Assembly: GCA_022710585.1 (NCBI GenBank)
Contig: JAKLGV010000015.1
Coordinates: 5,623-69,622, forward strand
Direction: 5' to 3'
Length of the DNA: 64,000 nt
Origin: Deltaproteobacteria bacterium
GTDB taxonomy: Bacteria; Desulfobacterota; Syntrophia; Syntrophales; Smithellaceae
A program made the position numbers and the translations under genes. Within the stretch, counting starts at the first letter, position 1. Each line of letters opens with the position of its first letter. Positions 18,356-24,340 of the stretch are shown here, one piece after another. The notes under the pieces are model-generated. The model did no database searches, was not told the DNA's origin, and worked only from the letters and a program-made list of their open reading frames with translations.

Positions 18356-21300
18356 CTAAAATGATTTTTCATTAATCCACTGCGCCCCGTCACGAACCGA
18401 ATTCTGGTCAAACTTGAAGCGGAAGCGGACAAAAGGCCCCTGAGCGGTATAACTTGCGTCAGAAAAATCCTTATCTTCAAAGCCGAAGAAATTATATCCC
18501 AGACTCAGCCATGCATTTTGAGCAATGTTATATCCGACTGATAAACCGCCGCTGTAATCAAACACCGATGCGGACCACGAATGCAGGATGCTGCCCTGTA
18601 AACCGATATCCCAGTCTTTATTAATATCGTAACGGTGTTCCACACCCCAGAGATCCGTATAACCGCTGTAATCATCGCCATACTTTGTTTCCCGCCCGTA
18701 TTTTGCGCCGTAATGGAGAGAGAGCTGATGATGTTTAACCGGCCGGTAGTTCAACATCAAATTGTTGACAATTCTCCAGGAATCCGTATCGTCATTTCCG
18801 TCATTATCCTGTCTGTTAATGATTAAATCAAACCGGTTCAACGCCATCAATTTGGTTTCCGGCGGACGGTAGACCAGGCCGTAGCGCAGATCGGCGCTGG
18901 CGGTATCCGCGCCCGCGGATGAATTGACCTGGAATAACTGCAAACGTCCTGACCATGCCCAGTTTTGATCCACTTCTTTGACCAGACCGCTCATCAGACC
19001 CCATTTATCTTCCGATTCCGATGTCCGGTATTCCAGGCGGTTGTCCCACGTCAGACCTTTGACCTGATAGGTCGCTCCGCCGGATACAGCGGTAAAATCG
19101 TCACTGTTGCCGGATACGGAAACCACGTTGCCGGAAGCAGGCTGAACGTTATCATTGAACCGGTAGCTTTCCGATATGGTCTGGCTGCGCTCCAGTCCGC
19201 CATCGACTTTCCATTCCTTGTTGATCTGCCAGTTCTGCTTCATGCCGACATTGGCAAAAACACGCTCATCGTTTTCATTAAACTGCCGCTCCACGCTGCT
19301 GTTGACTTCGCCGCCTTTCCAGGGCGATGAACGCAGGCCAACCCGGGTGTTTTTGGTGTCGCTTTCCGAACCCCAGGTAAATTCCTGGGCGGCCAGCAGC
19401 GTGAACTGCTTGGTCACGGCGAGTTCGGCGCTGAGGGTGGTCCGCGTCGGAAAATCCACGTTTTCATTGCTGCCCACGGACTGGGCATGGTTGAGTCCCA
19501 GCGTCAAGCGATCATTCAACGTCACAACCTTCCCGCCCATCGTAATCTGATTGGACTTATTGTCGCTGCCGTCCTGAAGCTTGTCGGAAGCACGCAAGAA
19601 GCCCAGAGACGCTGTGTATTTCTTCGCATTATAATCAAACTTTCCTTCCATCAGATCACGTGTGGCATCGGTCATAAGATTGTCCTGACGATAGATATTG
19701 GTGCTTGCGCTGATCGTATCGGTGAAGCGGTATTTGCCCTCGATGCCGTATTTGCGCGTTCCCTCTTCGCTGCTCGGCTGCTGTCCCATGCCGAATCCTT
19801 CATCCTGTTCGCGGTAATAGGTCTTGATCTCCAGTTTCTTTGTGTTGCGCGACGCTTCCACCAGATAAGCGTTGCCATCGCGGCTTTCCGCGCCGGCATC
19901 GTACTTGCTTTTTGCGTACTCGGCGCGGACCTTTGTATTACTGTCTACATTGACGGAAACATCCGCGCCGTAAAGATCGCTGCTGCGATCGCCCTGCCCT
20001 TCGTGAATATATGTTCCGCCCGCCTTCATTTTATTGCCCGGCAGCTTGACACCGGCGCGTCCGCCGTACGTGTAGTCTTTTCCTTCCTGAGACCTGGTTT
20101 CATATTCCGCAACAATCGTTATCGGATTCATGTTCTCATCTCTGCTGAAAACAGGCTCCTTGAAGATGACTGAACCGGCGTCATAGTCAATCGAATAATC
20201 CGTAAAGCGGTTCAGAGTCCTCGAGGAAACCAGCACTTCGCTGCGGAAACGATCGCGCACCTCAATAGTAATTTTTTCCGACCCGGCCAGTATTTGCTTG
20301 CGGGAAAGCCTATACATTCCCGAGGTGCCGTCACCGGGAATTTCATCCCGGGTATAAATCTGATCCGTCTCGCTGACAAAAGCATTGACCTCATAATACC
20401 GGCCCTGCATTTCGGTTTTCACGCCCGTCATGCGTCGCCCGTAGCGGGAAAGTTCCGTAATGGTCAGTCCCGTATCAAAATCGCCGAAGAGCGCGTAAAA
20501 CTGCTTCCGTTCGATTTTCAGATACAGTTTTTTCGCGCTGGCCGCGTCGTACTGCTGTTGCGACGCATCACCGTAAAGCGTGAAATAGCTTTCCGGATTG
20601 ATGGTCTGGAACAAGGCGTTATTGGTGTCCGCTTTTGTCTTGGCGGTGTCATACGCCATCGTCAGAAGCCATTTGCCTTTGATCTGCCCCTTGGCAAAAA
20701 ACGCCAGACGGCCGTCCTGATAGAGCTTTTCTTCGAGATCGGCATGCTTGAGATTTTCCATGTTGCCGGAAACGGTATTATAGCCGACGGTCCCCTCACC
20801 CAGACCGACCAGAATCCAGTCGCGCATAATCGGCTGAACATACGTTTCCACTTCCGCGGTGACATTGTTGTAACCCAGAACAGCCCTGTACAGACCGCTG
20901 TTGGTCACCGGTTGAAATAAAATTTCTCCCTCTTTGCTCATCTGAACGACGGGATGGCTTCCCGATTTGGGTGGCAGCGCAAAAATATCCGGCTTTTTCA
21001 ACGGGACAAGCGTTCCTTCCCGAATCTCCAGGTCCGCGCTCGCCGGCATGACAACGCCACTGGCGTCATATAATTCCAAGATGATTTTGACCGGCGTTTT
21101 GCCGTCGGCCACATTGCCGTCTTCCGACTTCACGCGGATCGATGCAATTTCGCCGCTGCGCGTGACCGTGTGCGTTTTCTTGACGCGGGCGTTGCCGAAC
21201 GGATCCAGCCCTTGAATCTCCACGGTGTGCGGACCGGCTTTTCCGAAATCAACGCCGATATAGCTGTAAATCGCCTTGCCGGATACTTTATCCTTCATCG

Positions 21301-24300: not shown

Positions 24301-24340
24301 AAAACCGTCGGTGAAGTCTATGTAACCGGTTTAAAAGCAT
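18356..24340 (-). CDS. giant outer-membrane protein: DUF11/Cna-B-like passenger modules, OmpA peptidoglycan-binding domain and a large C-terminal beta-barrel
   Basis: Signal peptide ...[12 protein letters not shown]. Two DUF11-like modules (e.g. [34 protein letters not shown]). A CarboxypepD_reg/SdrD-B-like module ([28 protein letters not shown]). An OmpA domain ([11 protein letters not shown]...[16 protein letters not shown]...NRRVELHIV). The last 880 aa or so are alternating beta-strands ending FVRFRFKF...EKSF. The true start is probably internal (ATG 24262), because codons 10-22 of the long ORF are a perfect hairpin. Confidence 0.8.
   Translation of the reverse strand: [1994 protein letters not shown]
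24278..24307 (-). promoter_or_regulatory. perfect 13-bp stem-loop between the 399-aa subunit gene and the giant gene
   Basis: CGGTTTTCCGGCC-tttc-GGCCGGAAAACCG (GAAA tetraloop on the mRNA strand). No U-tract follows, so this is more likely an RNA stability, processing or attenuation element than a full terminator. Confidence 0.6.

Follow-up and report, generated by a model that had tools for sequence, protein, structure and literature searches.

How can a single polypeptide place a domain that binds peptidoglycan between a row of surface-type immunoglobulin (Ig)-like modules and a barrel in the outer membrane? This question is raised by a 1,994-amino acid (aa) open reading frame (ORF; 18356..24340, minus strand, stop codon included) in a 64,000-nt stretch of contig JAKLGV010000015.1 (assembly GCA_022710585.1, positions 5,623 to 69,622), hereafter called the window, from a Deltaproteobacteria bacterium of the Smithellaceae. 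An earlier note, made from the sequence alone, had listed a signal peptide, several Ig-like modules, an OmpA domain, a linker and an exceptionally large C-terminal barrel, and had called this order topologically puzzling. Both the ORF with its domain order and the puzzle proved real, since a periplasmic-type OmpA domain indeed lies between an Ig stalk and a predicted outer-membrane barrel. The gene for this protein, here termed the big gene and its product the big protein, is the last of a run of five co-directional genes (p1074, p159, p378, p424, and the big gene). We see about an even chance that the big protein is the basal, donor-only and terminating component of a five-gene donor-strand fibre operon, with its stalk passing through its own barrel and tied to peptidoglycan.

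Split CLIPPER domains in the proposed fibre operon

DUF11 domains, renamed CLIPPER, have a CnaA-like fold with an isopeptide bond between a Lys of the first strand and an Asn of a late strand, catalyzed by an Asp about 33 residues after the Lys (PMC12617251). In the triad as in PDB entry 9IFR, the Asp and the Asn are found at about +33 and about +91 from the first-strand Lys (PMC12617251). Read against this description, the complete CLIPPER domain of the big protein carries all three residues, in WLQK, ITDVMP, and INNA. The four upstream genes encode CLIPPER-type domains that are cut short. The fibre subunits p424 (24364..25638, minus strand) and p378 (25650..26786, minus strand) open right after the signal peptide with the motif "h-x-N-x-A-x-h ... 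S-x-V-x-V-x-h" and stop abruptly after a "..TFQVTVN"-type strand. The same end, without such a start, is seen in p159 (26951..27430, minus strand), which is a single truncated CLIPPER domain, and in p1074 (27549..30773, minus strand), which is probably the tip protein and has a Gly-rich, AgmC_N-like part at its N-terminus as well as CLIPPER domains, of which the last is a truncated acceptor. Pfam matches of DUF11 to the C-terminal domains of the subunits end at about profile position 65 of 114 (positions 2–65 only in p378). The truncated C-terminal domain of p378 has the Lys (LTIEK) and the Asp (TDPLP, +34), and the Asn-x-Ala strand and the final CLIPPER strand are found not there but as the N-terminal extension of the partner. 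The mature big protein starts with the same kind of motif, which closely resembles the end of its own complete CLIPPER domain; its N-terminal extension (aa 73–105; 24026..24124, minus strand), equivalent to the two final strands of a CLIPPER-type domain, is proposed to be the donor hairpin.

Judged from these sequences, the shared strand motif supplies the last two strands that are absent from the truncated C-terminal CLIPPER domains of the upstream subunits. The donors are p378, p424, and the big protein, and the acceptors p1074, p159, p378, and p424, with the big protein able only to donate because its own CLIPPER modules are complete. Its most probable partner is p424. The strongest evidence for the donor reading, which we regard as decisive, comes from natural fusions in two metagenome-assembled genomes (loci L002 and L007), in which a big protein without a signal peptide continues, in frame, a p424-like subunit that brings its own signal peptide and donor motif (fused genes at 6860–13081 in L002 and 5696–13708 in L007). 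L007 even carries three tandem copies of a unit composed of the p424-type C-terminal domain and the N-terminal motif of the big protein, which are thereby completed in cis. When the C-terminus of p424 from the window is joined to the mature N-terminus of the big protein, the two are collinear with the fused homologues across the junction at 54–56% identity to L007 and 46% to L002, with gaps of 1 residue only; the fused side of this alignment reads VLVLYQVTVN-NPAQGVNIVNNAKL-SS..SAVTVAVKI.

Chimeras of acceptor and donor sequences are a weaker line of evidence. They gave 2–8 times more junction-spanning alignments to intact CLIPPER domains than chimeras with shuffled donors, the counts always being above the highest of 10 donor shuffles, and addition of the donor raised the scores for the sister families DUF7507, DUF7927, and DUF7619, which a scrambled donor did not. 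Scoring of the chimeras with the Pfam DUF11 profile was discarded as a donor test, as the scrambled donor scored equally well. The earlier note had already pointed to a strand motif shared with the fibre subunits, and this motif is indeed conserved in the subunits as well as directly after the signal peptide in most of 60 big-protein ORFs, even in those with about 500 extra residues behind it. The triad is split between donor (Asn) and acceptor (Lys and Asp), so that covalent locking of the joints is possible, and on the basis of these residue positions the subunits may be connected by isopeptide bonds.

Conservation of the architecture

Our scan of one genome per species returned 566 relatives, and 80 loci were kept. 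In most of these loci, the N-terminal region, DUF11, the middle region, OmpA, the Ig modules, and the barrel follow each other in one ORF of about 1,800–2,300 aa. The loci stem from Desulfobacterota, Nitrospirota, Zetaproteobacteria, Gammaproteobacteria, Lentisphaeria, and Myxococcales, and the single-ORF architecture is also present in cultured isolates (Geomobilimonas luticola, three Geomonas species, and Geobacter sp. AOG1). Mis-assembly, which the earlier note had named as a possible refutation while suggesting a search for homologues of the same domain order as a check, is excluded because this one-frame architecture is kept in most of the 80 loci, including those of cultured isolates. 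An exhaustive HMMER search found 3,524 clusters at 50% identity (E ≤ 1e-3), and 1,432 at E ≤ 1e-30. Among the members listed, the length is typically 1,600–2,700 aa and in most of them the barrel reaches to within a few residues of the C-terminus; a single ORF is likewise seen in most of the 150 best representatives.

Four families recur widely across the 80 loci, namely the tip-like, p159-like, and p378/p424-like genes and the big gene itself. Clustering of the loci showed that each of the other plus-strand families occurs in at most 26 of the 80 loci, none with an assigned function, so that no other gene is present in more than about a third of them, and no chaperone-like family is widely shared. 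The p159-like homologue (∼160 aa, a single truncated CLIPPER domain without donor motif) is found in 56 of the 80 loci, between the tip and subunit genes, and might serve as a cap, hold donor strands like a chaperone, or form an alternative tip. An OmpA domain is encoded in 51 of the 59 ORFs that have both stalk and barrel (86%) and is absent from the remaining eight, including that of the cultured Desulfosarcina alkanivorans (1,692 aa from stop to stop). Most members thus carry the anchor, but it is not obligatory.

Barrel or stalk proteins that stand alone on long contigs were considered as natural gene splits, an explanation that was rejected after inspection of four loci. In all four, L081 (Polaromonas sp. 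P1-6, CP087966.1), L082, L004, and L018, the "barrel-only" and "stalk-only" pieces lie in different frames of one locus and reflect frameshifts, the big gene being broken into two to four frames (frameshifts or pseudogenes). One such frameshifted or pseudogene copy is present in a finished isolate genome. Broken big genes are thus one reason why databases list "barrel-only" and "stalk-only" proteins; many other short database matches are marked "partial" or are located on contigs of a few kb.

Two further observations concern the big gene itself. Locus L028 harbors two copies of it (1–5130 and 10436–15130). Opposite the barrel gene, minus-strand ORFs with a median of 213 aa are found in 68 of the 80 loci and cluster across loci; these most likely represent shadow ORFs caused by the conserved coding strand rather than genes.

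Ig stalk, OmpA domain, and linker

In the big protein, only two domains score above the Pfam threshold, OmpA (aa 796–898) and one DUF11 (aa 407–518), and NCBIfam agrees. The remaining modules became visible in an AlphaFold2 model of the stalk (aa 70–795, 64 sequences) with a predicted local distance difference test (pLDDT) score of 89.3, which predicts an N-terminal β-hairpin of lower confidence (69–81) followed by five Ig-like modules. Foldseek matches of this model include Gram-positive pilins (BcpA and the basal pilin EbpB), SdrD, PrgB, UafA, and integrin legs. Module 1 (aa ∼110–283; 23492..24013, minus strand) has no Pfam match; its Ig-like nature, which the earlier note had proposed, is supported by AlphaFold2 and Foldseek. 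Module 2 (aa ∼284–405; 23126..23491, minus strand) is prealbumin-like in the model, with a weak CarboxypepD_reg match at aa 273–352, and module 4 (aa ∼538–645; 22406..22729, minus strand) is an SdrD_B/CarboxypepD_reg-like Ig module with a weak SdrD_B match at aa 555–599. Both had been recognized as prealbumin-type modules beforehand, but their SdrD-B and CarboxypepD_reg labels were swapped relative to the weak Pfam matches.

Between them lies module 3, the complete CLIPPER/DUF11 domain (aa ∼406–532; 22745..23125, minus strand), in which Lys, Asp, and Asn-x-Ala are in place. It is supported by AlphaFold2 and by a match to PF01345 at aa 407–518 (35 bits versus a cut-off of 24.6), in agreement with the first of the two DUF11 domains claimed before; p378, p159, and p1074 match this family as well. 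The second claimed DUF11 (aa ∼657–778) has no Pfam match and is seen in the model as a divergent CLIPPER-like module 5 (aa ∼650–778; 22007..22393, minus strand). It is nevertheless a diverged DUF11 copy, to which the homologous DUF11a modules of L002 and L007 align at 25–29% identity. All parts of the stalk model (pLDDT 89) are Ig-like modules, and no second membrane-spanning segment was found in the N-terminal region.

The OmpA-like peptidoglycan-binding domain (aa 796–905; 21626..21955, minus strand) was identified by Pfam (PF00691, aa 796–898, 63.8 bits versus a cut-off of 27.2), by NCBIfam, and by its PDB relatives MotB, AbOmpA, and YfiB. In an alignment with Acinetobacter baumannii OmpA (3TD3), the Asp of TGYTDN and the Arg in LSLARA fall on GHTDN and LSLARA, whose Asp271 and Arg286 bind the diaminopimelate of peptidoglycan. 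Judged from its sequence, the domain thus looks able to bind peptidoglycan and should be periplasmic, as the earlier note had argued. It is followed by the Ala/Lys/Asp/Glu-rich linker described there (aa ∼906–968; 21437..21625, minus strand), which is presumed to be flexible and lies almost wholly outside both structure models.

Pre-barrel Ig modules and a predicted giant barrel

A second AlphaFold2 model covers aa 960–1994 (1,035 residues, 93 sequences) with a pLDDT of 78.9 and a predicted template modelling (pTM) score of 0.72. It starts with two Ig-like modules (aa ∼969–1170; 20831..21436, minus strand), for which Foldseek returned matches of the intimin D00-D0 and titin type and of which only one, termed Big-like, had been noted before. 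These are followed by about eight strands, a small β domain, 32 further long strands, and a tail of 19 aa. The predicted barrel region (aa ∼1176–1975; 18416..20815, minus strand) thus has 32–40 strands and ends with the β-signal-like strand FVRFRFKF, which is kept in the family; the conserved tail behind it (18359..18415, minus strand) is predicted with low confidence to be helical. The earlier description of a barrel with this end holds, except that the barrel comprises about 800 rather than 880 aa, contains the inserted β domain, and is followed by 19 instead of 20 aa.

The barrel region belongs to no Pfam family, the sole hint being OMP_b-brl, and has no sequence relative in the PDB, a profile search included. 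At the level of fold, nearly all of its top Foldseek matches are closed outer-membrane barrels (probability 1.00), such as SlpA, LptD, TonB-dependent receptors, SprA, FimD, and MtrB, and the best one is SlpA (8ae1, E = 8.6e-8). Template modelling (TM) scores are low (∼0.2, also for SlpA), as expected for a barrel of different size. ApoB100 β-belt structures also appear among the matches. On the basis of the secondary structure of the model (by DSSP) and of the fold matches, aa ∼1176–1975 are predicted to form one very large outer-membrane barrel of 32–40 strands and not a soluble solenoid, the outcome on which the earlier note had made its description depend. By the standard barrel-radius formula, the backbone diameter of a barrel of about 40 strands would be near 7 nm, which is similar to SprA and would offer ample space to folded Ig domains. 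The record for known barrels is still attributed to SprA with its 36 strands (10.64898/2026.03.07.710327).

Conservation within the family is highest at aa 1149–1414, where 21 of the 37 invariant columns are located. This region includes the small, highly conserved inserted β domain (aa ∼1336–1400; 20141..20335, minus strand), which follows after about eight strands, and two conserved loops of low model confidence. By analogy to usher plugs, it is a candidate gate or plug.

A proposed basal fibre subunit threaded through its own barrel

How could these parts work together? The big-protein stalk is best read from the sequences as a part of the fibre and continuous with it, because the big protein appears as a donor-only base and because a subunit is fused to its front in L002 and L007. 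The fibre would be composed of an acceptor-only tip, shaft subunits with donor and acceptor, and the donor-only base, each subunit completing the C-terminal CLIPPER domain of its neighbour by donor-strand complementation. The C-terminal barrel of about 800 aa would be inserted in the outer membrane. As both ends of a barrel inserted by the β-barrel assembly machinery (BAM) normally face the periplasm, the two pre-barrel Ig modules, the linker of about 65 aa, and the OmpA domain would be periplasmic, with OmpA bound to peptidoglycan. From there, the Ig stalk would rise via the barrel lumen and meet the fibre outside, so that the chain would pass the membrane once through its own pore, like an autotransporter with a periplasmic detour to OmpA. 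A second crossing embedded in the membrane is not expected because the stalk model holds only Ig modules. The barrel would also export the subunits and thus unite usher, terminator subunit, and cell-wall anchor in one chain; it is the only candidate export channel because, besides the tip-like, p159-like, and subunit genes, nothing recurs widely beside the barrel gene. This single passage of a fibre base is favored over the two topologies of the earlier note, a periplasmic platform or two crossings of the outer membrane, which proved incomplete: the stalk has no second membrane segment for the latter, and the natural fusions speak for the stalk as fibre base. More tentatively, and with clearly more doubt than belief, we propose a chaperone- and sortase-free pilus pathway of diderm bacteria, in which a protein of about 2,000 aa would act as pore, terminator, and peptidoglycan anchor at once, split CLIPPER domains would join the subunits by spontaneous Lys-Asn isopeptide bonds between molecules, in the manner of a natural SpyTag/SpyCatcher pair, the fibre would be covalent from tip to wall, and the barrel, with ∼38–40 strands, would exceed the 36 strands of SprA.

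Several observations weigh against this reading of the big protein as a threaded fibre base. The exit of the subunits or of the stalk from the periplasm is something that we infer. The link from the last stalk module to OmpA measures only about 18 residues, which keeps the root of the stalk close to the peptidoglycan. With 47.7% identity, the stalk is about as conserved as OmpA (47.9%) and the barrel (50.0%), in contrast to the variability typical of a surface passenger. Incoming subunits should meet competition from a donor strand that is tethered at the pore, so that elongation before termination is a difficulty. Within the barrel, many strands of the first half are rather polar and the odd/even hydrophobicity contrast of the predicted strands is weak, so that sides facing lipid and lumen are not clearly separated. 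As to the joints, BLAST E-values are similar for different donor/acceptor pairings, the lysine spacing in the p424-type domain differs from the canonical CLIPPER spacing, and some orthologues have another residue in place of the donor Asn (Ser in L002 and L005, Asp in L031). An isopeptide lock is therefore not universal. With crude regular expressions, the Lys..Asp motif was detected in only 46 of 78 ORFs of the subunit type and the motif of the donor Asn in 50 of 70, a partial recovery on which we base no claim of a universal triad.

A wholly periplasmic stalk would also be compatible with the short link to OmpA and with the conservation of the stalk, which equals that of the OmpA domain and the Ig modules. 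In such an arrangement, the barrel would export the subunits like an usher, while the whole stalk would stay on the peptidoglycan through OmpA and its N-terminal strands would either cover the open grooves of arriving subunits for a time, in the role of a chaperone or adaptor built into the protein, or hold the last subunit below the pore. Something must prevent early polymerization, and neither a chaperone gene in the window nor a widely shared chaperone-like family in the 80 loci is available for this; the periplasmic Ig-like domains beside the barrel of ushers such as FimD and PapC handle incoming subunits in this way, and FimD is among the fold matches of the barrel. However, a complete fibre subunit is fused in front of the stalk in L002 and L007, which treats the stalk as a part of the fibre, one donor hairpin without an acceptor groove is the signature of a terminal subunit and not of a recycling chaperone, and five Ig modules (∼20 nm extended) are long for the gap between peptidoglycan and outer membrane. 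We regard a periplasmic platform, in either variant, as unlikely, albeit worth keeping in mind. The same fusions, together with the N-terminal donor motif, link the big protein directly to the fibre and so make it distinctly improbable that it is merely an envelope tether or porin in the manner of Deinococcus SlpA and OmpM, that is, a staple between outer membrane and peptidoglycan with a large pore at which CLIPPER proteins exported via a different route would dock. SlpA and OmpM share the order of a peptidoglycan-binding domain and a C-terminal barrel with the big protein, SlpA is its best Foldseek match, and 86% of the full-length members have OmpA; on the other hand, the TM-scores to SlpA are only about 0.2, OmpA is dispensable in eight full-length orthologues, among them that of D. 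alkanivorans, and the big gene nearly always occurs with p159-like and subunit genes.

Even less probable is a C-terminal region of 800 aa that forms no single membrane barrel but a soluble β-solenoid or belt, or two smaller barrels. The ApoB100 β-belt among the fold matches, the several polar strands, and the weak hydrophobicity contrast would fit this idea, against which stand the closed outer-membrane barrels that make up nearly all of the top matches, a pTM of 0.72 over 1,035 residues, the conserved β-signal-like end, and OMP_b-brl as the only Pfam hint. Finally, an artefact of assembly or annotation that fused two or more genes can practically be dismissed: many database homologues are barrel-only (∼1,000 aa) or stalk-only (∼900 aa) proteins, but the four inspected loci are frameshifted, many other short matches are partial or come from contigs of a few kb, and a single ORF is found in most loci, isolate genomes included, and in most of the 150 best representatives.

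Comparison with known fibre and secretion systems

Read as a threaded fibre base, the big protein has its closest functional parallel in chaperone-usher pili (FimD/PapC usher, PapH terminator, and PapD-type chaperone). There, too, the N-terminal strand of one subunit fills the gap in the incomplete Ig fold of its neighbour, the tip has no donor strand, the terminal subunit has a donor but no usable groove, and the same operon encodes a barrel of the outer membrane that has Ig-like domains in the periplasm and a small β domain as an insertion. In contrast to these pili, the proposed donor is the two-strand hairpin of a CLIPPER (CnaA-like) domain, and terminator, pore, and peptidoglycan anchor are one polypeptide. 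The usher barrel has 24 strands with a plug between strands 6 and 7, whereas the model of the big protein predicts 32–40 strands with the small β domain after about eight. No homology to Usher (PF00577), PapC_N, or PapC_C was found in Pfam, NCBIfam, and PDB sequence searches, and FimD is only one of many generic barrel fold matches. Likewise, a cognate PapD-type chaperone is absent from the window, and clustering of the 80 loci showed that only the four fibre-related families are widely shared. As proposed, the system would work most like a chaperone-usher pilus in which usher, PapH-like terminator, and cell-wall anchor are fused, but it does not belong to the ushers by homology, has no chaperone, and differs in predicted barrel size.

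Autotransporters provide a second set of parallels. Classical ones (type Va) have an N-terminal extracellular portion followed by a C-terminal barrel, and their chain passes through its own lumen, as proposed here for the big protein. Their barrel has 12 strands, compared to a predicted one about three times larger in the big protein, which has no Pfam match to Autotransporter (PF03797). In further contrast to type Va, OmpA, the linker of ∼65 aa, and two Ig modules lie between "passenger" and barrel, and the passenger would become part of a fibre of several subunits. In a similar way, inverse autotransporters (intimin/invasin, type Ve) unite a barrel with a domain that binds peptidoglycan in the periplasm and with a row of Ig-like (Big) domains, and intimin D00-D0 is a fold match of the two pre-barrel Ig modules. 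However, their domain order is reversed (LysM, barrel, C-terminal Big passenger), they use LysM instead of OmpA, and they have a 12-strand barrel and no separate polymerizing subunits. LysM is not among the domain matches of the big protein.

Large barrels with other partners are also known. The tethers Deinococcus SlpA and OmpM have a wall-binding domain N-terminal to a large C-terminal barrel, which has 30 strands in SlpA, but carry an SLH domain and a coiled coil, have neither a 700-aa Ig stalk with a donor strand nor a fibre operon, and match with a TM-score of only ∼0.2. SprA of the T9SS (type IX secretion system) is likewise a very large single-chain barrel that is able to pass folded proteins. 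It differs in that it has no sequence similarity to the barrel of the big protein, is restricted to Bacteroidota, serves proteins with a recognized C-terminal sorting domain, and has no fused stalk or OmpA. The match between the two barrels is one of generic fold only (TM 0.16), and no T9SS sorting-domain family was found among the Pfam and NCBIfam matches of the subunits.

With regard to the joints, "exchange and lock" fibres with covalent joints are known from archaeal threads (PMC9715654) and from BsaA of Clostridium perfringens (10.1101/2024.11.04.621531). In these fibres, as in engineered SpyTag/SpyCatcher, an N-terminal donor strand completes the β-sandwich of the neighbour with Lys-Asn/Asp chemistry across the joint, which resembles the split domains proposed here. 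Archaeal threads and BsaA differ by their monoderm cells, their TasA-like or other folds, and the absence of an outer-membrane barrel or fused anchor; in the present system, the isopeptide bond is deduced from residue positions. In contrast to sortase-assembled pili, a sortase is not found among the scanned neighbours, and the subunits end right after a β-strand without an LPXTG-type signal. Fibrillar single-chain CLIPPER adhesins with an OmpA-like anchor are known, for example B9T28_05395 of Acinetobacter silvestris (PMC12617251). This protein shares CLIPPER stalk, OmpA-like anchoring domain, and Gram-negative host with the big protein, but is one long chain of intact CLIPPER repeats with OmpA at the end, with no split domains, separate subunits, or giant barrel. 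The "sfz" stalk gene cluster of Zetaproteobacteria (PMC8250860) was considered as a related system and proved unrelated. No published description of the big-protein family or of the fibre operon was found in the literature.

Gene start and neighbouring genes

The mechanically defined ORF is too long at its N-terminus. The stop codon of p424 is separated from the probable big-gene start by a hairpin (24278..24307, minus strand) with a perfect 13-bp stem and a GNRA-type loop (GAAA), which has a folding energy of −38.4 kcal/mol in its 91-nt context (z = −5.2). As this hairpin sits within the first 26 codons of the ORF, translation probably starts at the ATG at 24262 (M27) or at a nearby TTG eight codons later, so that the first 26–34 codons are probably untranslated. 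The signal peptide noted before stands: from either start, a normal Sec signal peptide is predicted (24125..24262 from M27, minus strand) with cleavage at AFTFA|APVQ after aa 72, a site that fits the collinear alignment of the p424 C-terminus and the mature big-protein N-terminus with the fused homologues. The hairpin could set the ratio of the abundant subunits to the rarer anchor, or stabilize the upstream mRNA.

The N-terminal domain of p1074 resembles that of the gliding-motility protein AgmC (NF047640, 121 bits, below the cut-off of 275) and is accompanied by long Gly-rich repeats; we found no open literature on AgmC. Genes for a chaperone, sortase, or peptidase do not adjoin the operon in the window. 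A NusG paralogue (NusG and KOW domains, 194 aa; 17672–18256, plus strand) is convergent with the operon end. Specialized NusG paralogues often control long operons for surface structures. Directly upstream of p1074 and on the same strand lies a gene for a Fur-family regulator (30900–31319, minus strand), which hints at metal-dependent control of the operon. Downstream of the operon, a full glycogen gene set (9570–17682, minus strand) encodes glycogen phosphorylase, starch/glycogen synthase, branching enzyme, and 4-α-glucanotransferase, and appears unrelated to the fibre genes.

Implications

The family is large and uncharacterized, and its list of parts is unlike that of any described fibre-assembly or secretion machinery. 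Two circumstances may have kept it in a blind spot: its members are longer than the 1,280 residues at which bulk AlphaFold DB predictions end, which may explain why the family went unnoticed, and the homologues that either half of the protein retrieved from databases are mostly incomplete sequences or fragments of frameshifted genes. If the big protein is the base of a fibre as proposed, the operon would represent a new class of building surface fibres in Gram-negative bacteria and would offer a concrete solution for anchoring a fibre in the cell wall across the outer membrane. It would possibly contain the largest single-chain membrane barrel and would provide a naturally occurring system for ligation by split domains, which might be useful in protein engineering. 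The carriers include Geobacter-type metal reducers, syntrophs such as Smithella, iron-oxidizing Zetaproteobacteria, Nitrospirota, and marine Gammaproteobacteria, for which attachment and cell-cell contact are ecologically important.

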